From: Escherichia phage vB_EcoM_G5211
DNA: 64,000 nt
Direction: 5' to 3' (one strand)
Sequence record: MK327947.1
Below the pieces are notes generated by a model. That model saw nothing but the letters and a program-made list of their open reading frames with translations. It had not been told where the DNA came from and searched no databases. Of the stretch, positions 39,833 to 53,790 are shown piece by piece; the first letter of the stretch is position 1; each line of letters starts with the position of its first letter. The translations under genes were made by a program, and so were the position numbers.

Positions 39833-40152
39833 TGTTCCATGAAAAGCGGTGCTGTTTCTTCTTTCAGTTTAATAACTAGCGCGGAAACTTCATCAAGAAA
39901 ATCTTTTTCCATATGAGCAAGCATTGATTTAGAATCTTTGATGACTTTCAAAGAATATTCACTTAGATTTCCTTGTCCTAACAATAATGCAGGATACACA
40001 CTATGTGGGATCTCGATTTCATGATATTCGCTCATATTATAATATTTGTGAATTTTTAAATCTATATTTCTTCGTTGTACGTCCACATCAGCAATGACAT
40101 ACAGAAGTTCGATTTTATCACTTTTCTGGGAAAGGGTAGCATTCAAAAACAT
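39823..40152 (-). CDS. hypothetical protein
   Basis: ORF preceded by cassette. Confidence 0.5.
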   Translation of the reverse strand: MFLNATLSQKSDKIELLYVIADVDVQRRNIDLKIHKYYNMSEYHEIEIPHSVYPALLLGQGNLSEYSLKVIKDSKSMLAHMEKDFLDEVSALVIKLKEETAPLFMEQKG

Positions 40153-40215
40153 TGTTAATCCTCCGTTGTTTCGATGAGTTCATTATACATTACCTCGCCA
40201 ACATGTCAATACATT
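40153..40215 (-). promoter_or_regulatory. early promoter/leader cassette
   Basis: TTGACA 40204-40209, TATAAT. Confidence 0.55.
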
Positions 40216-40270: not shown

Positions 40271-41245
40271 TTACATCCCTAACAGAGCGTCAAGATCATC
40301 CAGATCAGAAGCGGAGGAAGTACCGCCACCCAGATCCAGCGATGCCATCAGGTCATCAGCGGAAGAATCTAACGCCGTGCTAGCTGCGTTAATACCAACT
40401 ACAGTGCTAGCTGCGTTAATACCAGAATCGAATGCATTCATCTGTGCGTCAAAATCGTCAAGCTGGCTGTTAATCGCTGCCGCAGCACTGGAAGCCGCAG
40501 CACCAGCTACCATAGAAACGCCCATAGTTTTCTTAAATTTGGTTTCCAGTTCATCGAACGGTTTAAACTGGCTAGGCGCTACAATCTCACTCAGGTCAAC
40601 CATGTTTTCCATCAGATATTTCTGATATGCTTCGTCTTCAATTTTCGGAAGCTGTGATTGCTGCATGAAACGAGAATCATCATAGTTCTGGTGTTTATCA
40701 ACCTTCTTAGCTTTCAGGAGGAAGTTAGCACCGGAGAACACACAAGTTACATCTACCGGAACTTCGCCCATGTCGGTATTCACGTTCACCATTGCAACGA
40801 TCTTATCATAAATTTTCTGACCGAAGCGGAATTTGAATACCTTACCTTCATTTTCTGGTGATTGAGGATCTTTCAGTACCAGAATATTTGCGTAGTAAGA
40901 CGCTTTACGCTTAATCAGTTGCCATTCGGTTTTATCGGTATTGTACAGGTCTTTTTCGTTAATATATTTGCACACAGGGCAAGAATCAAAATCACCGTGG
41001 GTGCTGGAGCAGTTTTCCCAATACCATTTGCCATTAACTTTGAAGGAATGGTTTACCAGTTTCACAATCGGCAGACCGTCTTCTGTCTTAGACGGCAGGA
41101 AGCGAATCAGGGCTTCACCGTTACCTGCTGCATCAGTCTTAATCTTCCACTCTTTTGGATCTTCTTTGGAGAAACCGTTGCCACCTTTCAGTGCGGCCAG
41201 TTGAGCTTGCAGTTTGGAAGAATCTTGGCGTTTAAACATATTCAC
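40271..41245 (-). CDS. 32: gp32 single-stranded DNA-binding protein
   Basis: Colinear with T4 gp32 ([38 protein letters not shown]); acidic C-terminus. Confidence 0.9.
40377..40430. repeat. 27-bp tandem direct repeat (2 copies) inside gene 32 C-terminal region
   Basis: GTGCTAGCTGCGTTAATACCA at 40377 and 40404; encodes duplicated INAAST. Confidence 0.7.
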
Positions 41246-41310
41246 TATTCCTTCTTTTGATTAATTTACTAGACTATTATACAGATTTAAGTTTACTTGT
41301 CAACTATTTG
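41246..41310 (-). promoter_or_regulatory. sigma70-type promoter upstream of gene 32
   Basis: TTGACA 41298-41303, 17-nt spacer, TATAAT 41276-41281. Confidence 0.55.
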
Positions 41311-41980
41311 TTTCGGATTTTAATTGAGATATTTCTTTACACTCTTTAACTACTTTAACAAATAATGCTCTTGCTTTTGCGGCGTCAATAACAAGTAGTT
41401 TCTTGTACGCCTTCATTTTAACACTATAAGTTTGCCAAATCAAGTCTTTGGCTACCTTGTCGTGTTCGTCGATTATATTTAGAAAGCTATCTAACAACAT
41501 AAACGACTCAAACGATATAATCCGATTTTGCAGTAGTTTAAAGATACCGCTAGTTTCGGTTGCGGGATTGTATGTAATTAGCTCTTTAAGAGTAACCCCG
41601 CGTTTCTCGGAGAAGTATACCAGACTTTTAATGTCATCGTCAAATCTTGTTGCTGCATCGGTTATCTTTCCTATGTATTCCATATAAAAGCCGTATGCGT
41701 CAACATCAGTGATTTCACCTACCCATGCATCGGTATTAGCTACCAGATTGCTTAGGAATAGGAAGTATAGTTCTCTTAGATTGTACTTTTCCGCTAATTT
41801 TGCGAAATAATACTTATCTCTGCGTTTATTGAATGCGGCATCAGACAACCGCATCCTCCAATTGTATTTTACGCAATCATAACGCCCGTTCATATGAGCT
41901 TTCATCATGCAATATAACATATACACAGATTTAGCATTAATTCGCATATCTGGATCTGGAGGAAGACGGTTTCTGATCAT
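41300..41980 (-). CDS. 59: gp59 helicase loader
   Basis: Colinear with T4 gp59 (KSVYxLY, HMNGxYD, KYNW, SDAAxxKRRDKY, LSNLVAN). Confidence 0.85.
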   Translation of the reverse strand: MIRNRLPPDPDMRINAKSVYMLYCMMKAHMNGRYDCVKYNWRMRLSDAAFNKRRDKYYFAKLAEKYNLRELYFLFLSNLVANTDAWVGEITDVDAYGFYMEYIGKITDAATRFDDDIKSLVYFSEKRGVTLKELITYNPATETSGIFKLLQNRIISFESFMLLDSFLNIIDEHDKVAKDLIWQTYSVKMKAYKKLLVIDAAKARALFVKVVKECKEISQLKSETNS

Positions 41981-41989
41981 ACATACCCC

Positions 41990-42259
41990 TTAAATATCGA
42001 GAGTGTTGGTCGGTTCGTCGATCACTCCCTTCCTGAGCGTTCTATTTACTATACATTCTTGTGTGATCTTGTCAATAATGGACACCGGAATATACTTCTG
42101 ATAGTGACCATATTCGATAGAGTTTTCCTCTACAAACTGCGTTGTCGCTTCAAGATAAGTCAATCCCTCTTCAACAACCAGTTTTTCGATTGCAAGACCG
42201 TTTGCTGTTTTGTTCGCGGCTTTTACCGCATGTTCATTAAGCATTGAACACCCGATCAT
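41990..42259 (-). CDS. 33: gp33 late transcription co-activator
   Basis: Similarity to T4 gp33 core (EKxVEExGxxYLEATTxFxEENSI); position. Confidence 0.7.
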   Translation of the reverse strand: MIGCSMLNEHAVKAANKTANGLAIEKLVVEEGLTYLEATTQFVEENSIEYGHYQKYIPVSIIDKITQECIVNRTLRKGVIDEPTNTLDI

Positions 42260-42512
42260 AGAGTTCTACCGCTTCATCGCGTTCTGCTTCGAAGGTTTCG
42301 CGCTGTTGCTGGTGATACAGTTTAAACAGAATGCCCCACATTTTACCATCTACGCCTAATTCTTCTTTAGCACGCTGTTTGATCTCTTTGATCTTATCGC
42401 CATATGCTTCTTGAATGGTTTTCTGATCGCTGGCTTCTTTAATCAGTTGTGCCAGGGTATTTCCGTGTACATTTTCGTCAAATACTACTTTTTCTTTTTT
42501 CTGTTCAGTCAT
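42237..42512 (-). CDS. dsbA: DsbA-like dsDNA-binding protein
   Basis: Size (91 aa) and position between 33 and rnh. Confidence 0.55.
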   Translation of the reverse strand: MTEQKKEKVVFDENVHGNTLAQLIKEASDQKTIQEAYGDKIKEIKQRAKEELGVDGKMWGILFKLYHQQQRETFEAERDEAVELYDRVFNA

Positions 42513-42516
42513 AATA

Positions 42517-43113
42517 TTAACCCTCTTTCGTCATTAATTGAAAACCACGTTCAGCTTTTGAAATTTCGCTAGGACTTAAATCGTCACCCACATATTCTAG
42601 CATCATTTCTCGGATAATGTCAAGTGCTTTTTCATCACCTGATTTTAACTCGAACTCAAGTTCATAGTGAGCATCTCCCATGACTTTGCCGACTTTGCAA
42701 TAATAGAAAGTGTCTTTGCACATTTCCACTATAGCACCCTCAAGGTCAAGTGTCAATGACTTGCGGTATGTCATTACTTGCAATAAAGGAACGATAAGGT
42801 CGGAGTTTACGCCTAGACTATCAACATAGTGATAGAAATCATCCATTGTTGAAAAAGTAATTTCTTCTCGGTTGAATAGTCCAGATTCACCATCACCTAT
42901 TTTGACCATGATCAATGATCTATTAACGTCAAGTCGAGCATAAATTCCTTTTCGACGCAGTGCATGATCTTCGGTATCATAATAAAATTCGTGTTTTAGA
43001 ATGTTATCTCGGTCTACGAGATTGTACCCGTCATACATTGCTACCCACAAATCACAGATGGTTTCGACGCCAATTTGTGAGTGTGCATAGTATTTTAATT
43101 CAAGTTCTTTCAT
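42517..43113 (-). CDS. CYTH-like (triphosphate tunnel metalloenzyme / CyaB-like) domain protein
   Basis: N-terminal ELELKY (ExExK), LRRKGIYARLD (R-x-R strand), C-terminal YELEFELK; 198 aa; no counterpart at this position in T4. Confidence 0.55.
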   Translation of the reverse strand: MKELELKYYAHSQIGVETICDLWVAMYDGYNLVDRDNILKHEFYYDTEDHALRRKGIYARLDVNRSLIMVKIGDGESGLFNREEITFSTMDDFYHYVDSLGVNSDLIVPLLQVMTYRKSLTLDLEGAIVEMCKDTFYYCKVGKVMGDAHYELEFELKSGDEKALDIIREMMLEYVGDDLSPSEISKAERGFQLMTKEG

Positions 43114-43123
43114 ATGTCAACCC

Positions 43124-44071
43124 TTAGAACTCACCAATTTTCTGCAACATTTTAACTAACGCATTTGTTACAAAATAGTTATAAATTTTACCGCGTGGTG
43201 CTGGTTTAGATTTTTCCCATGACGCCAGAATCTGATTCTGAATATTGTCTGGGATGTAATCGAAATCAATAAGTTCGCGGTTTTCGTCAAAACGTCGTGC
43301 TTCTTCCTCTGTCATCAAAGACTTTGGATCTTCGGCATCGAAAATTTGCTCTAACCATTTGGTTGCAATTGGTTTAGCTCGTTCCCCTTCCAGTCGAGAG
43401 ATAATGAAATCACTACGACACTTGACAGAAGCCACACCGTCTTTTGCGTCACCCTTAACACATTTTACCATAAGGTCTTTGTAAGGGCTACCATATTTGC
43501 ATTTCTTCCATGCTTTCTGTACTGGCGCCCACTGTTTCACATTTTTGTATTTGTGTAACTGTGTGTAGTCACCATCGCCGGAGTTGATTAGCACCTGACG
43601 ACCTTCTACAGAAAACTTTTTAGTTAACACAGCGATTATATCATCTGCCTCAACTTTGTCAACCTTAATAACGTGATAAGGCATGTTCTCTTTAAACTCT
43701 TCGGTGATCTTATTGATCGCAGCAAAGATCATCTCCCAATCACGCGGATCTGCGTCTCGTTTTTCCTTACGGTTGCGTTTATAGTAAGGGGCGATATCAC
43801 GTCGCCAGTAACCTTTGCTTGAATCGAATGCAAGTACCGTTATTGGGTATTGCTCTTTGAATTTTGTCATATTATAACGCATGGTGTCAAGAATAAGATG
43901 ACGGATCATGCCTTCATTAATAGGATCTTCCGGTTTAAATGTATGAGAGATAGTAGCAATCATAAGCTGTGACATATCAATCAAATGCACACCTTCCGGT
44001 AGTTTATCTTCTGGATCATCGAAGAAATCATTAAGTGTAGCGGTAGTTTTTGTAAACGGGTTATACGTCAT
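43124..44071 (-). CDS. rnh: RNase H / 5'-3' exonuclease
   Basis: Colinear with T4 RNase H (GYWRRD, YKxNR, MPYxV, EADDxIAVL, SxDGDxTQLHKYxNVKQW, IDFDYIPDNI, PRGKIY). Confidence 0.9.
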   Translation of the reverse strand: MTYNPFTKTTATLNDFFDDPEDKLPEGVHLIDMSQLMIATISHTFKPEDPINEGMIRHLILDTMRYNMTKFKEQYPITVLAFDSSKGYWRRDIAPYYKRNRKEKRDADPRDWEMIFAAINKITEEFKENMPYHVIKVDKVEADDIIAVLTKKFSVEGRQVLINSGDGDYTQLHKYKNVKQWAPVQKAWKKCKYGSPYKDLMVKCVKGDAKDGVASVKCRSDFIISRLEGERAKPIATKWLEQIFDAEDPKSLMTEEEARRFDENRELIDFDYIPDNIQNQILASWEKSKPAPRGKIYNYFVTNALVKMLQKIGEF

Positions 44072-44073
44072 AA

Positions 44074-44259
44074 TTAAGTTCTCTCCACTCTCACAACAAC
44101 ATATTCGCCAAACGAGTTAGATACTTCACGATCATACCCGTATTTCTCCATAACTCGCAGAATTGCATTGTTTAATTCGGCACGGAAATAATTGTAATCC
44201 TTATCAGGGATTCTGTCAACTACCCATTTTGCACCATCTGACAAATCAAATTTAACCAT
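44074..44259 (-). CDS. hypothetical small protein
   Basis: ORF only. Confidence 0.4.
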   Translation of the reverse strand: MVKFDLSDGAKWVVDRIPDKDYNYFRAELNNAILRVMEKYGYDREVSNSFGEYVVVRVERT

Positions 44260-44297
44260 AATATATCATCCTCTTTTGTTTCTATCAAGCCTTATTT

Positions 44298-44305
44298 TAT
44301 AAATA
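44298..44305 (+). promoter_or_regulatory. late promoter TATAAATA for gene 34
   Basis: exact TATAAATA about 30 nt upstream of ATG, followed by AAGGAG RBS. Confidence 0.6.
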
Positions 44306-44333
44306 TGAACATACTATAAAAGGAGACCCAATA

Positions 44334-47300
44334 ATGGCAGATTTTTCTCAACATTTCAAGGCCACATTTGGCTTTGACGCTGGTAATGAAAAGGTCGTCA
44401 ATGTAGCATTGGCTGATAAGAATGTCAACACCGATGCGGTCAACGTTGAATTTTTCAATTACCATAATGGTATTACTCAGTATGACGCAACTCGCGGTTA
44501 TGATCAATACGGCACTACAATCTATCAAAACCGTCCGTATTATGCAAAAGAAGATATCACAAAACCAGCAGGTGATTTTGACCCGACTAAATGGCAAGCA
44601 CTGCGCACGGACCCACGTTGGGATTATGTTGCAGCAACTTCCGGCGATACTCCTTTAAAGTCCGGTGATTATATCGCAGCGGACTGTCAGTTTGCAAACT
44701 TGACATTCTCAATGCCTACAAATCCGGTAGAGGGCGACAATATAACAGTAAAAGATATCGGTGGCAAGTGCGGTGTTAATGAGTTATCGTTCCTTTCGGT
44801 TGGTCATGAGTTCTATCATAATGGTGTGGTAAACAACCGCAAATGGTACTGTACTACCCCTTATGCAATGAACTACTTCATTTTTGTTCGCAATCGCTGG
44901 CACGTTTACCAGACGGGAACGGAGCCACGCGGGGTATATGCACAACCATCTATCGACCCGATCCAGATGCAAAACGGTGATCAGGTATTCCGCCGTAGTT
45001 CTTTGGGTAACATTGTTTTGATGCTTCCTAAGTTTGCTAATAACGGTGATATGATCCAGACTACCGATCTTGACGGATTGACTGCAACCAACCATGTTAC
45101 GGTAAAAGTGCATGAAGGTGCGCAAGAACAATCGATCGGTACTTTCGGGGTAAAAGAAATTGTTGGTAAGCGTAGCGGTCATGGTGTATTCATATTTGAC
45201 AAACCGGAAAACTTATGGCGTTTGTGGGATGGTGATCAGTCTGTTCGCTTGAATCCTATCATTAGTGATACTCGCTTGTCCCCCAATAGCTATGTTGCAG
45301 TATTTGGTGATCGTGATGTTACCTTGACTTTACCGACCAGCGTCGAGCATGGTGATCGTATCCAAATTTCTATGCAGTATATGCACGGAAACCAGAATTG
45401 CCGAATCGTTACCGCAGAAGAGGATACAAAAATCCTTATGCAGAAAAACATGGTTCAGTTTCCTAAGCGTAGCGAGTACCCGTTCAATGGGACCGATACA
45501 TGGAAGGAAGTGTCTGAATTGTCTTTCAACGCTGCAAATGATTATGTACCTTATCTGGAGTTCTCTTATTCAGAAGGTGATGATGGTAAGAAACACTGGT
45601 TGGTAGCACATGCTCACCCGATCGTAGAACGAGTAGATCCGACTCGTAAAGAGCGTGTTGGTGTTATTGCGCTTGCAACACAGGACGAAACCAACAAAAA
45701 CCATGAAGATAATCCTAGCGACGAAGTTGCAGTAACGCCAAAAATGCTTGCCAATAAGACTGCAAACGAAACGCGTCGAGGTATTGCTAGAATCGCTACT
45801 CAAGAAGAAACGCACCAACATACAGGGGCAAATTTTCTTGATGATGTGATCGTAACTCCTAAAAAACTAAATGCGTGTGTTGCTTCCGAAGAACATCGAG
45901 GCGTGTTGGAGATTGCAACTCAGGAAGAAACCAACGTAGGTTTAGACGATACACGCGCAATCACCCCTAAGAAATTAGAGGAACGTCGCGCGTCGGAAGA
46001 CCTTGCTGGTATCGCTGAAATTGTTCAGATGGGTGGTAGTGCTGCCGCTCGACGTGGCGAAGCTGGTACAGGGGTCTATAACATCAATGACCATGCTAAA
46101 ATCGTTACACCACAAAACATCAACGAAGTTAAGGCGACCGAAACTTCCCGTGGTGTTGGTTATCTGGCAACTGACGCGGAAGTGCAAGGGGCTACAGAAG
46201 CAACCCCGCAAGATGCAATGCTGATCACTACTCGCACGTTAACCAAGCGTACTGCTACCGAATCGCGTACTGGTATCGCTGAAATTGCTACGCAGGAAGA
46301 AACTAACTTAGGCCAGAGTGATAACCATATCATCACGCCTAAAAAGCTGCATACTCGCCGCGCAACTGAAACTTTACATGGTTTAGCAGAAATTGCAACT
46401 CAGCCGGAATTTGACGCAGGTCGTGACGATGCTCGCATTTCTACTCCATTGAAGATTAAAACCTTCTTTGAGAAAGCACAGCGTTTGAGAGTAGATCCGA
46501 ATCAGGGGCTTAACCTTACGGGTGATTTATGGCAAGGTATCACGATCAGCGGTCTTGATGCAACCGAAGATACAAAAGGTGTCGCGAAAGTTGCTACTAG
46601 TCAGCTTACCGATGTGGGAGAAGATGACGCCACGATCATTACTCCTAAAAAGCTGCAAGGCAAAAAGGCCACCGAAGATAAAGAAGGTATTATCAGAGTT
46701 GGTACTCAAGCCGAAACCGTCGCTGGTGCACTGGACAATGTAGCAATTTCTCCGAAGAATTTCAAATATGTTGTCCAGACAGAGGATACATGGAAAGCAA
46801 CCGAAGCGCGTCGTGGATTCTTGAAAGTTGCTACTCAGGAAAACTGTTTTGTTGGCGATAATCTGCAAGGTTCTACTCAAGAGCTTGATGAATATCAGCA
46901 TGATGGGATTGCGGTAACTCCGAAAGGATTAAACTACGCACTTGCTAATTTCTTACCTAAAATGGCAACCGCTCAGAATAGTTTGAAATTGGGTAACGTA
47001 GAGGCCGCTAAATGGGCGCGCAGAGACATTGACCAGACCATTGAGAGCAATTACACGTTTAATAAAAACGTTAACGTGAAGGGCGATTTAGAGTGCTTAA
47101 AATCCGGTTCCTTTGAAACTCTGTTTGTGACTAAGAACTCGACTGACGATCCGAGTAATGGTCATCTGGTATTGGGTGAGCGTGGAGTTGACGGTCACAC
47201 CGGAATTACTCTGCATGGCACAACCTTGTCAGAAGGTATGGAAAACTCATGGTCTATTATCGTTGGTGGCACTGGAACGGCGCAAGCAGTTAATAGTGAT

Positions 47301-51009: not shown

Positions 51010-53790
51010 ATGGCAGATTTACAGAGAATCCAATTTAAAAGAACAAGTACGGCAGGTCGCAAGCCGGATGCGAATATTCTAACTCCGGGTGAACTTGCTA
51101 TTAACCTAGCGGATCGAGAACTATATACAAAAGATGACAGCAATAATGTAATTACTTTGGGACACTTTCGCGGTGAGTTGCCATCTGATGCAAATTTAGA
51201 TAATTATGGACCTACTGGTAAATTTACTGGCGTTTGGTCTAAATCAACTTCAACAAATGCGCAGCCAGCAAATAAATTCCCAGAAGAGAATGCTGTAGGT
51301 GTATTAGAAGTATTTGTGGCTGGTCAATTTGCTGGCACTCAGCGTTATACTGTTCGGTCTGGTAACGTTTATATCCGTTCTTTGTCTGCGAAATGGAATG
51401 GCGTAGATGGTCCATGGGGTCCGTGGCGCAATATTCAAACTGGCACACGTCCACTATCAACTACACTAGACTTGAATACTTTAGGTGATGCTTCTCATTT
51501 TGGGTTATGGCGAAATAGTTCAAGTTCCATTGCATCATTTTCTCGAAATTACCCAGAAGAAGGTGGTCTCGCGCAAGGTCTTTTAGAAATTTATGAAGGT
51601 GGTAACTATTCTCGCACGCAACGTTATACTACCCGAATGGGTGTTGTATATGTTCGTTGTCTTGCTGGTGCATGGGATCCAGAAGCTCCGAATTGGGGAC
51701 CGTGGCAACAAGTAGGTATGGTTACTCCCAACACATTCTATGACGGGGATCTTAATAATTTTCGTTCTCCTGGCTTATATAATATTTTAGGCACTGATGC
51801 CGTTATTAACCGTCCAGTTGCAGAAGGTGTTCCGGTTGAGATGACCGGATTGCTTGAGGTTAAACAGCGTGCTTCCGGTGGCGCTATTTTCCAACGTTTC
51901 ACTACCGCAGGAACGGGATCTACTACCCGTGGTCGTGTTTTTGAACGTGCAATGACAAATAATATCTGGGGAAATTGGCATGAAGTATATACATCTTATT
52001 CTCTGCCAATTACTTTGGGTATGGGTGGTATTAAAACTCAATTAGCGGAGCTAGATTGGCAAACATTTGATTTTGTTCCTGGTAGTATGTTTAGCGTTCC
52101 TTTGAACAAAATAAAGAACATGCCAGCAAATATGGATTGGGGTGCGATTGACGGAAACTTGGTTATGTTTTCTGTCGGTCCTAGCGAACACACTAGCACA
52201 GGGCGTACTGTTCAGGTTTGGCGTGGTACTGTATCCCAGACAAACTACCGTTATTTTGTCGTTCGTGTGTTCGGTAATTCTGGAAATAGAACTTGTACAG
52301 TTCGCCGTGTTGTTCTTGAAGACGGATCACATACTTGGACTGCTAAACAAGATTTTAATGGTGCTGTCAACTTTGGTGGTTCGACAACTTTTAAGTCCAC
52401 TACAACTTTTAACACAGAAGTTAAATTCCGTTCATCCAATGCATTTAAAATGTATGGCGGTAATTTTGGCACAATTTTCCGTAATGATGGTGAAAGTCTT
52501 TATATTCTTTCCACCGACGAAAATGATCAAGATGGAAACTTTAATACAAATAGACCTTTCCGCTATCAATTAAAAACTGGCGATGTTACTTTGGGTGGCA
52601 CTAGCGGTGCTAACGCTTTAGTATTAAAAGGCGGTTCTCTTGCTGCTACCTTTAGCGGTGATGTTAATTTAAGTAAAGGTACGCTGACGTTTGAAGCGGG
52701 TGGTAAGCAATCACGCGATTATTTCCGGTTTAATCATTGGGGTGATAGCAATAACGCTCGTGATAACATTATTCAGTTAGAAGATAGTAAAGGCGCTCAT
52801 TTTTCCACTGAACGTACTTTAGCGACTGGTGCAATTAAAACTAAATTCTTTGGTGAAGTTGAATCAACTGGTCGATTGACTATTAAACGTCCGGGTGGTG
52901 CTATTGTATTATCGACTACAGCCAGCAACGCTTTGCATATTCGCGGTGACGTAGACGGGAATGGTAACTGGTATATTGGTAAAGGTGGTGCTGATAATTC
53001 GCTAGCATTTTATAGCTATGCTACTCAGGCGGCAGTACATATAACAAACAATGGTGAGATTGCGTTAAACCCGCAAAATACCTTAATGGTTAACGTTAAC
53101 CGCGATCGTATGTATATCAATGGTGCAAGTTGGGTTGCCAGACAACCAGGTGATTGGGGCAACCAATGGCGAGTAGAAGCTCCATTATTCGTTGATCATG
53201 GTTATGTTGGTCAAGATAGTTATTATCCTATTCTTAAAGCAAGAAGCGTTATAACCAATCAAGGATATAGCACCGCTGTTGACTTTGGTATGCGTCGTAT
53301 TCCATCACAGTGGGGGCAAGCAATCATTCGTGTCGGATCCACGGAGGCTTCTCCTGATGCTGGACACCCACAAGCTGTGTTTGAATTCCATCATGATGGG
53401 TTCTTTTATACACCAGGAAATGGTAGCTTTAGCGATGTGTATATTCGTTCTGACTCCCGTCTTAAGATTAATAAAGAAGAGTTAGAAAACGGAGCACTTG
53501 AAAAAGTATGCCGTCTGAAAGTTTATACTTACGATAAAGTTAAGTCTATTAAAGATCGTAGTGTGATTAAACGTGAAGCTGGTATTATTGCTCAGGATCT
53601 TGAAAAAGAATTGCCGGAAGCTGTATCTAAAGTTGAAGTTGATGGATCTGATGTTCTGACAATTTCTAACTCGGCAGTGAATGCTCTTTTAATTAAGGCT
53701 ATTCAGGAAATGAGTGAAGAAATTAAAGAATTGAAAACTCCTTTCTTTACTAAAATTGCTCGCAAAATTAGTAAATATTTTAAATTCTAA
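51010..53790 (+). CDS. 37: gp37 long tail fiber distal subunit with C-terminal intramolecular chaperone domain
   Basis: N-terminus MADLQRIQFKR..GELAINL..TKDDS like T4 gp37; C-terminal ~113 aa carries SDxRLK ... AGIIAQDLEKELPEAV (peptidase S74-type chaperone signature). Confidence 0.85.
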   Translation: MADLQRIQFKRTSTAGRKPDANILTPGELAINLADRELYTKDDSNNVITLGHFRGELPSDANLDNYGPTGKFTGVWSKSTSTNAQPANKFPEENAVGVLEVFVAGQFAGTQRYTVRSGNVYIRSLSAKWNGVDGPWGPWRNIQTGTRPLSTTLDLNTLGDASHFGLWRNSSSSIASFSRNYPEEGGLAQGLLEIYEGGNYSRTQRYTTRMGVVYVRCLAGAWDPEAPNWGPWQQVGMVTPNTFYDGDLNNFRSPGLYNILGTDAVINRPVAEGVPVEMTGLLEVKQRASGGAIFQRFTTAGTGSTTRGRVFERAMTNNIWGNWHEVYTSYSLPITLGMGGIKTQLAELDWQTFDFVPGSMFSVPLNKIKNMPANMDWGAIDGNLVMFSVGPSEHTSTGRTVQVWRGTVSQTNYRYFVVRVFGNSGNRTCTVRRVVLEDGSHTWTAKQDFNGAVNFGGSTTFKSTTTFNTEVKFRSSNAFKMYGGNFGTIFRNDGESLYILSTDENDQDGNFNTNRPFRYQLKTGDVTLGGTSGANALVLKGGSLAATFSGDVNLSKGTLTFEAGGKQSRDYFRFNHWGDSNNARDNIIQLEDSKGAHFSTERTLATGAIKTKFFGEVESTGRLTIKRPGGAIVLSTTASNALHIRGDVDGNGNWYIGKGGADNSLAFYSYATQAAVHITNNGEIALNPQNTLMVNVNRDRMYINGASWVARQPGDWGNQWRVEAPLFVDHGYVGQDSYYPILKARSVITNQGYSTAVDFGMRRIPSQWGQAIIRVGSTEASPDAGHPQAVFEFHHDGFFYTPGNGSFSDVYIRSDSRLKINKEELENGALEKVCRLKVYTYDKVKSIKDRSVIKREAGIIAQDLEKELPEAVSKVEVDGSDVLTISNSAVNALLIKAIQEMSEEIKELKTPFFTKIARKISKYFKF

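Follow-up and report, generated by a model that had tools for sequence, protein, structure and literature searches.

A YgiF-type CYTH protein with a conserved, remodelled tunnel and a divergent core between rnh and dsbA of a Krischvirus

The 64,000-nucleotide stretch of Escherichia phage vB_EcoM_G5211 analysed here (MK327947.1; hereafter the window) belongs to a Krischvirus (RB49-like) genome and carries an open reading frame (ORF) of 198 codons between rnh and dsbA. The initial annotation had proposed that this ORF encodes a CYTH protein, that is, a triphosphate tunnel metalloenzyme (TTM), and our data support the view that it is a real, well-folded CYTH triphosphate tunnel gene. Its product is probably a YgiF-type CYTH/TTM protein that is catalytically competent and stands alone, lacking a CHAD domain. 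What is new beyond the domain call is that the protein belongs to a phage-only clade with a conserved gene order, that its tunnel has been remodelled (D62, Y58 and K40), that the core of the gene is hypervariable, and that the label of adenylate cyclase is rejected.

Family assignment and prior record

The gene and the evidence that defines it are as follows.

42517..43113, minus strand: CYTH/TTM gene, 198 aa (ORF listing with ATG start, Pfam PF01928, phrog_14893, annotation of the RB49 ortholog)

The Pfam search that the initial annotation had suggested as a check returned a match to PF01928 at 26.9 bits, over the gathering cut-off of 23.2 (E = 5e-6), and a hidden Markov model (HMM) built from 88 cellular CYTH proteins matched the phage protein at E = 1.5e-33. 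When a single sequence was used to search the PDB the result was marginal (E = 0.076), and the profile of the 19-member phage family was needed to reach the sole sequence match, the E. coli inorganic triphosphatase YgiF (E = 0.0026). The AlphaFold2 model, for which the family alignment served as input, shows eight long strands and four helices, with a predicted local distance difference test score (pLDDT) of 92.5 and a predicted template-modelling score (pTM) of 0.85; the eight-strand tunnel that had been expected is thus present in the model. In a Foldseek comparison of the model with the PDB, YgiF ranked first (E = 9e-13, TM score 0.78), followed by plant TTM3, BH2851, SaTTM, thiamine triphosphatase and CyaB, the best matches all being tunnel enzymes. 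More remote structural matches included Cet1 and the mimivirus and vaccinia capping enzymes, a branch that is structurally the most distant of the superfamily, as well as non-enzymatic TTM folds. The acidic and basic tunnel residues, whose conservation had also been put forward as a check, are invariant in homologs down to 23–40% core identity. An NCBIfam search with the CYTH protein gave no family, and PHROGs places phrog_14893 under unknown function. The polyphosphate-binding CHAD domain gave no Pfam match, and nothing follows the tunnel domain in the phage protein, which is 198 residues long; some cellular relatives (P0050, for example) carry CHAD.

The same gene is present in phage RB49 as RB49ORF244c (phrog_14893), which lies in the same rnh–dsbA position and encodes a protein of 97.5% identity with five amino-acid differences, such that the window copy is another allele with no difference of substance. 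The GenBank note of RB49ORF244c reads 'similar to P45267, P30871, HI1598, ygiF', and the Pfam table of Nolan et al. 2006 lists a CYTH domain for it (E = 0.0026; PMC1524935). The CYTH domain call is therefore already known, and has been on record since 2003–2006. The call itself adds nothing: the RB49 ortholog has been labelled as CYTH or ygiF-like for about 20 years, and databases precompute PF01928 for most members of the family.

Tunnel residues and predicted chemistry

Tunnel positions were compared with the 88 cellular CYTH proteins, each of about 200 aa, and within the alignment of the 19 phage family members, with residue roles for YgiF and AtTTM3 taken from structure–function work (PMC4641920). 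The motifs map to the following segments.

43093..43107, minus strand: ExExK motif, codons 3–7 (E-L-E-L-K), invariant in 19/19 of the phage family and found in 87/88 cellular proteins
42928..42942, minus strand: strand of codons 58–62 (Y-A-R-L-D), which in the alignments replaces the canonical x-x-R-x-R
42643..42663, minus strand: last barrel strand, codons 151–157 (E-L-E-F-E-L-K), from alignment to 5a60 and 88/88 cellular proteins
42544..42561, minus strand: start of the C-terminal 'plug' helix, codons 185–190 (S-K-A-E-R-G), from the model and the YgiF alignment

Both terminal motifs of the initial annotation, an N-terminal ExExK and a C-terminal acidic strand, were found, as E3-L-E5-L-K7 and E151-L-E153-F-E155-L-K157, respectively. 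E3 and E5 correspond to E4 and E6 of YgiF and E155 to its E162, all at metal site 2; E153 corresponds to E160 at metal site 1, a residue invariant in all TTMs; and K7 and K71 are the equivalents of the basic tunnel residues K8 and K69 (PMC4641920). Positions 153 and 155 are glutamate in 88/88 cellular CYTH proteins. Towards the C-terminus, the model has a helix at residues 186–196, with K186 matched by K in 88/88 and G190 by G in 85/88 cellular proteins, and the S-K-A-E-R-G segment, which is shared with YgiF-type CYTH domains, aligns to SKAARG of YgiF. Within the phage clade, 17 residues are invariant (E3, E5, K7, Y44, D46, R60, K71, R82, E84, R117, E151, E153, E155, S185, K186, R189 and G190), and the same residue occurs at these positions in 78–88 of the 88 cellular proteins. 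The same range applies to the positions at which R82, E84, R117, E130, D134, S185, K186 and R189 sit, with E130 and D134 kept in 5/6 of the phage-clade members compared.

The third motif that had been read from the sequence, an R-x-R strand within LRRKGIYARLD, did not stand. R53 and R54 lie between strands in the AlphaFold2 model and vary among homologs, and the strand proper is Y58-A-R60-L-D62, in which the second Arg is replaced by Asp. R60 aligns with the first Arg of RxR (R in 87/88 cellular proteins), equivalent to the catalytic Arg56 in YgiF. The second Arg, found in 86/88, gives way to D62, and where the phage protein has Y58 nearly every cellular CYTH protein has A, S, G or T. When the phage profile was aligned with YgiF alone, an alternative register was obtained, shifted by two residues, in which Y58 rather than R60 falls on Arg56; under both registers, the strand of residues 58–62 has one Arg and not two. 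The register with R60 on the first Arg is favoured because the spacing from the conserved YYDT-D--L motif supports it, and R60 is probably the catalytic Arg. The basic residues that are kept comprise K7, R60, K71, R82 and R117, with the register of R60 relative to the catalytic Arg differing between alignments.

The clade has further residues of its own at tunnel-phase positions: K40 (L/M/Q), M69 (T in 80/88), F136 (G in 69/88) and H149 (I), where brackets give the commonest cellular residues, together with E42, Y9 and C132. The count of basic residues in the tunnel stays the same, an Arg having been lost at position 62 and a Lys gained at position 40 of the adjacent strand; this suggests that the charge has been relocated within the tunnel rather than the binding site lost. 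The phage protein resembles the CYTH domain of YgiF (5A60/5A61) in its ExExK motif, its metal-1 and metal-2 glutamates, K71 as the equivalent of Lys69 and its C-terminal S-K-x-x-R-G helix. It differs from YgiF in having no CHAD domain, in carrying Asp for the second Arg of LRIR, and in having Y58, K40, F136, H149 and Y9 in place of the commonest cellular residues at tunnel-phase positions, at an overall identity of about 23–25%.

By homology to YgiF and AtTTM3, the triphosphate group would bind inside the eight-stranded barrel, held by K7, R60, K71, R82, R117 and K157 and by Mg2+ or Mn2+ bound via E153 (site 1). A second metal ion at E3, E5 and E155 (site 2) would then activate a water molecule, leading to cleavage of the terminal phosphate. 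Such two-metal hydrolysis of the terminal phosphate would be the best-supported chemistry for the protein.

A contrasting proposal, carried by three GenBank records in the form of an 'adenylate cyclase' label, is that the protein is a class IV (CyaB-like) cyclase that makes cyclic AMP in the infected cell. According to Vogt et al. 2021, class IV cyclases carry HF four residues ahead of ExExK (HFxxxxExExK), Ala for the second Glu of ExE, and a small residue for the first Arg (PMC8233210). All three published signatures fail in the phage protein: the HF motif is absent, since only M1-K2 precede E3; the Ala is not seen at the second Glu of ExE, where E155 is retained and invariant; and a small residue is not found at the first tunnel Arg, a position held by R60 in the preferred register or by a bulky Tyr in the alternative one. 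By these published sequence criteria, the assignment as a triphosphohydrolase and not a class IV adenylate cyclase is supported, and a cyclase is so improbable that we reject it. The 'adenylate cyclase' label thus appears unsupported, and the 'inorganic triphosphatase' label of the Makalu records would seem nearer the mark. A passage in PMC3440374 describes the adenylate-cyclase label as typical of inherited annotation for CYTH proteins.

The same study provides a signature for thiamine triphosphatases (ThTPases), W/YxRxR, in which the aromatic residue, placed two positions ahead of the first Arg, stacks the thiazole ring (PMC8233210). In the preferred register, the phage protein has the aromatic residue (Y58) and the first Arg (R60), and the second Arg is absent; unlike mammalian thiamine triphosphatase, it has Asp at that position, and its overall similarity to that enzyme is lower than to YgiF. 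The placement of Y58 at the ThTPase aromatic position is a hint that the substrate may carry a ring. More broadly, D62, Y58 (from a small residue) and K40 (from Leu) suggest an organic triphosphate, nucleotide- or thiamine-like, as a possible substrate in place of, or besides, bare tripolyphosphate. Given the similarity to YgiF and the presence of Y58, a small-molecule triphosphate, be it inorganic tripolyphosphate (PPPi) or a nucleotide- or thiamine-like compound, is taken as the default.

It is also conceivable that the tunnel is non-catalytic, and that it serves to bind or sequester triphosphate or polyphosphate, or to bind a protein partner, in the manner of Mediator Med18/20 or RESC. The loss of the second Arg, the ambiguous register of the catalytic Arg and the occurrence of non-enzymatic TTM folds among the structural matches are in line with such a role, but every ligand of the two metals, like the other conserved basic residues, stays invariant even between deeply diverged homologs, which a role without catalysis would hardly explain, and we consider a non-catalytic protein very unlikely.

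Locus, expression and the phage clade

The gene lies in a leftward replication and late-transcription block with the order rnh-CYTH-dsbA-33-59-32. Its immediate surroundings are listed here.

43124..44071, minus strand: rnh (T4 RNase H/5'-3' exonuclease), directly upstream (Pfam RNaseH_C and 5_3_exonuc_N)
42237..42512, minus strand: dsbA (late-transcription dsDNA-binding protein), directly downstream (Pfam Phage_DsbA, E = 5e-22)
41990..42259, minus strand: gene 33 (late-transcription co-activator), overlapping the end of dsbA (Pfam Trans_coact)
43635..43662, minus strand: perfect match to the sigma-70 consensus, 12/12 with TG, inside rnh (consensus scan)

Genes 59 and 32, identified by Pfam, follow further downstream of gene 33 in the same orientation. 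The coordinates of the 198-aa ORF between dsbA and rnh, which is on the minus strand and starts with ATG, were confirmed as first annotated, both neighbours being identified by Pfam, as was the statement that dsbA and rnh are adjacent in T4, where they lie 8 nt apart with no gene between them. Spacers of 10 nt (rnh to the CYTH ORF) and 4 nt (CYTH ORF to dsbA) separate the genes, and a purine-rich ribosome-binding sequence can be read before each start, such that the CYTH gene has its own. The CYTH protein and G5211_00240 of Escherichia phage vB_EcoM_G5211 are 100% identical, and the GC content of the gene is 0.38 versus 0.40 for the window. On the other side of rnh, between it and gene 34, lies a 61-aa ORF (44074-44259, minus strand) that corresponds to RB49ORF246c (phrog_3594); it is likewise absent from T4, and constitutes a second Krischvirus-specific small gene flanking rnh.

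The position of the CYTH gene bears on the idea that it encodes an RNA 5'-triphosphatase, which would remove the gamma-phosphate from 5'-triphosphate RNA (pppRNA) ends, either of the Okazaki pppRNA primers removed by the neighbouring RNase H or of host or phage transcripts destined for 5'-end-dependent decay. The initial annotation had raised this kind of role, along with the breakdown of host nucleotide signals; both suggestions are speculative. The gene adjoins rnh in the relatives examined (the contigs of P0044 and P0045 end before rnh), and the RNA triphosphatases Cet1 and the mimivirus and vaccinia capping enzymes are TTM enzymes that appear in the structural matches. The primers of T4-type phages start with a 5'-triphosphate, and the preferred substrate of E. 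coli RppH is diphosphorylated RNA, the product of an enzyme that is not known to have been identified. On the other hand, the Pfam scan gave no match to the profile of Cet1-like RNA triphosphatases (PF02940, mRNA_triPase), T4 processes its primers without such a gene, and in a densely packed phage genome adjacency says little about function. We therefore regard action on RNA ends as unlikely.

The perfect consensus match at 43635..43662 is a candidate early promoter that would read into the CYTH gene. Over 41900-44400, the minus strand holds 17 sigma-70-like matches, versus 6.8 +/- 2.9 expected. The T4-type late promoter motif TATAAATA was sought around the CYTH gene, and none was found nearby except one before gene 34. 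That copy, at 44298-44305 on the plus strand, precedes the start of gene 34 by 29 nt and falls in the 74 nt that separate this gene from the divergently oriented 61-aa ORF. Given that no late promoter lies near the CYTH gene and that it is tightly packed with rnh and dsbA, expression is probably early, together with that of the replication block.

An exhaustive HMMER search over 1.84 billion representatives recovered three clusters at about E = 1e-30 or better, followed by a gap, beyond which lie ordinary cellular CYTH and CYTH-CHAD proteins (1e-16 to 1e-3, checked with Pfam). The four best clusters (P0040, P0043, P0044 and P0045) are all encoded on contigs of T4-like phages. P0040 is the Krischvirus cluster; P0043 has 38% core identity and the gene order rnh-CYTH-dsbA-33; and P0044 and P0045, at 23-28% core identity, directly precede dsbA-33, on short contigs that break off before an rnh is reached. 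With tblastn over 50,697 phage records, the gene was found in 58 Krischvirus records only, and among these every record with the flanking genes also carries the CYTH gene; a 1.8-kb region is 90-99% identical to these 58 records, all of them RB49-like. A scan of IMG/VR with the family alignment yielded only three closely related Krischvirus loci, without any new distant relative. The gene is thus a member of a phage-specific clade with a long-standing conserved gene order. Since this phage-only clade keeps its gene order in distant relatives, recent capture from a host can be set aside, and recent horizontal acquisition was rejected in view of the ordinary GC content and of a gene order common to far more distant phages.

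Large viruses repeatedly carry tunnel triphosphatases, and the CYTH proteins of Aeromonas phages Aeh1, 65.2 and D3 and of jumbo phages, as well as the triphosphatases of capping enzymes, belong to the same superfamily as the phage gene. Other phage and giant-virus CYTH proteins are distant structural matches only (Foldseek E = 1e-7 or worse, TM score 0.5 or below); they were undetected by tblastn and are not shown to occupy an rnh-dsbA location. Outside the clade, a nearer match was seen in P0048 (462 aa), in which residues 13-175 match the phage CYTH profile (E = 1.1e-9) and are fused to a P-loop kinase-like domain (AAA_28/thymidylate-kinase-like). Pfam itself gave no CYTH match for P0048, and its domain arrangement recalls the kinase-TTM architecture of plant TTM1/2. 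In phage vB_EcoM_G2494 (MK327935.1), the CYTH ortholog at 301-896 is annotated as two coding sequences of 201 nt and 393 nt, a split that reflects either a frameshift or a sequencing error.

Several points weigh against the reading of the protein as a catalytically competent enzyme made early in infection. The second Arg of the canonical RxR is absent, and the alternative register puts Tyr58 on the catalytic Arg56 of YgiF, mutation of which cripples that enzyme (PMC4641920). The expression timing comes from consensus scans alone, and the split in G2494 means that the gene may be dispensable in laboratory culture. In the literature on phage CYTH/TTM proteins, RB49ORF244c and phrog_14893, no enzymatic or genetic work was found, the yield being the Pfam table of 2006 and a single speculative remark about jumbo phages (PMC7824862).

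A divergence hot spot around a fixed tunnel

Comparison of the window with Skers and with ECD7-type phages divided the gene into a conserved start, a divergent core and a conserved end.

42670..43083, minus strand: divergence hot spot, codons 11–148 (DNA and protein comparison with Skers and ECD7-type phages)
42517..42669, minus strand: conserved 3' segment, codons 149–198 (88–100% protein identity among Krischvirus-level homologs)

Relative to Skers, DNA identity was 100% over the first 30 nt of the CYTH gene, 53% over codons 11–148 and 97% over the last 150 nt, versus 96%, 99% and 98% in the flanking rnh, dsbA and gene 33. Relative to ECD7-type phages, the corresponding values were 97-100%, 84-85% and 97-98% within the gene, and 95-96%, 97-99% and 99% in rnh, dsbA and gene 33. 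Over an alignment of about 45 kb between the window and Skers, the sole breaks were indels of small ORFs or homing endonucleases, the distal tail-fibre region and the CYTH core. The Skers core is an in-frame replacement of nearly equal length, and in-gene replacements over this distance were confined to the tail-fibre tip region and the CYTH core. The distal tail-fibre/adhesin region itself (51137-53416), the hypervariable region usually associated with host range, gave no nucleotide alignment with Skers.

At the protein level, Krischvirus-type alleles are graded, with core identity falling from 96% to 39% while the C-terminal 50 residues remain at 88–100%. Against ECD7-type alleles, the nonsynonymous (dN) and synonymous (dS) divergence of the core was 0.12 and 0.41, respectively, compared with 0.01 and 0.07-0.26 in the flanks, and dN/dS was 0.28-0.31 in the core versus 0.00-0.13 in the flanks. 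Because dN and dS are both raised, the core has a deeper history than its surroundings, which points to allele exchange or long-maintained alleles and not simply to fast evolution of the protein in place. A diversity-generating retroelement was weighed on general grounds only and set aside, as the core that varies spans 414 nt, which is long, and the exchange of divergent alleles accounts for it.

Within the core strands, 19/35 positions in tunnel phase are invariant, compared with 0/37 positions out of phase (Mann-Whitney p = 1e-4), from which it follows that purifying selection acts on the tunnel lining of all alleles. The tunnel remains fixed, and the exterior drifts or diversifies. A split of dN/dS between tunnel-phase and other codons is limited by the differing lengths of the ECD7-type alleles and by too few substitutions in the RB49 comparison. 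At the DNA level, sigma-70-like sites with 11/12 matches (43120-43092 and 42623-42594) coincide with both conserved ends of the gene, and the segment 42517..42669 holds, besides the match at 42594-42623, the Shine-Dalgarno sequence of dsbA. These promoter-like sites may add a DNA-level constraint at the gene ends.

The hot spot, located in a gene block that is among the best conserved in T4-like phages and in a gene whose catalytic tunnel is strictly conserved, raises the possibility that the enzyme acts in counter-defence or in sanitising nucleotide pools, by hydrolysing a harmful small molecule that bears a triphosphate. Candidates include a nucleoside triphosphate (NTP)-type immune messenger, a chain terminator (dITP-like or ddhNTP-like), unwanted dNTPs, or tripolyphosphate from dNTP triphosphohydrolases. 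This proposal concerns the role in infection and is compatible with two-metal hydrolase chemistry. The CYTH core is among very few non-collinear spots between near-identical phages, and its alleles are graded (39-96% core identity) around a conserved tunnel lining; graded alleles with a fixed active site are a pattern common at host-interaction loci. Tyr58 is placed where ThTPases stack the aromatic ring of their substrate. Nucleoside triphosphates can act as immune messengers, for which the Kongming dITP system offers a precedent, and CYTH, like MazG, has been proposed to clear unwanted NTPs in jumbo phages (PMC7824862). Against this, comparison of the protein with the defence and anti-defence models of PADLOC returned 0 families at E up to 1, and the dN/dS of the core does not exceed 1 while its dS is raised too, so that neutral import of a diverged segment fits equally well. 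A link to DNA modification finds no support either: two Krischviruses that are 99.96% identical, SAP (OZ034687) and TB34 (OX001802), differ in carrying modified versus canonical cytosines (PMC13390438), yet both match the query at 84.9% identity, and the proposed connection to Krischvirus cytosine modification was dropped for this reason. Overall, a counter-defence or pool-sanitising role is rather unlikely.

A more specific form, which we hold to be doubtful, is a host-interaction factor under frequency-dependent selection, whose surface would evade host sensors while its tunnel destroys a messenger, a toxic nucleotide or an RNA 5'-triphosphate mark. Escape of the surface from host sensors with a fixed tunnel would explain the deep alleles of codons 11–148 in phages that are otherwise 95-100% identical. 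If the variable surface does reflect an arms race, the gene offers a cheap and well-defined target in the search for a new phage counter-measure acting on triphosphate compounds, and a practical one, being a predicted soluble enzyme of 198 aa from culturable coliphages. For the substrate of the YgiF-type hydrolase that we favour, our ranking places a small-molecule triphosphate first, followed by the counter-defence or pool-sanitising version and then by 5'-triphosphate RNA ends, with a non-catalytic protein unlikely and a cyclase rejected.

The same alignment located the indels near gene 32. Compared with the window at 39833-40155 and 41244-41328, Skers has a gene for a GIY-YIG nuclease upstream of gene 32 and a gene for an HNH homing endonuclease between genes 32 and 59, neither of which is present in the window. 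T4 has SegG at the 32/59 position, and homing endonucleases have repeatedly settled at this junction.

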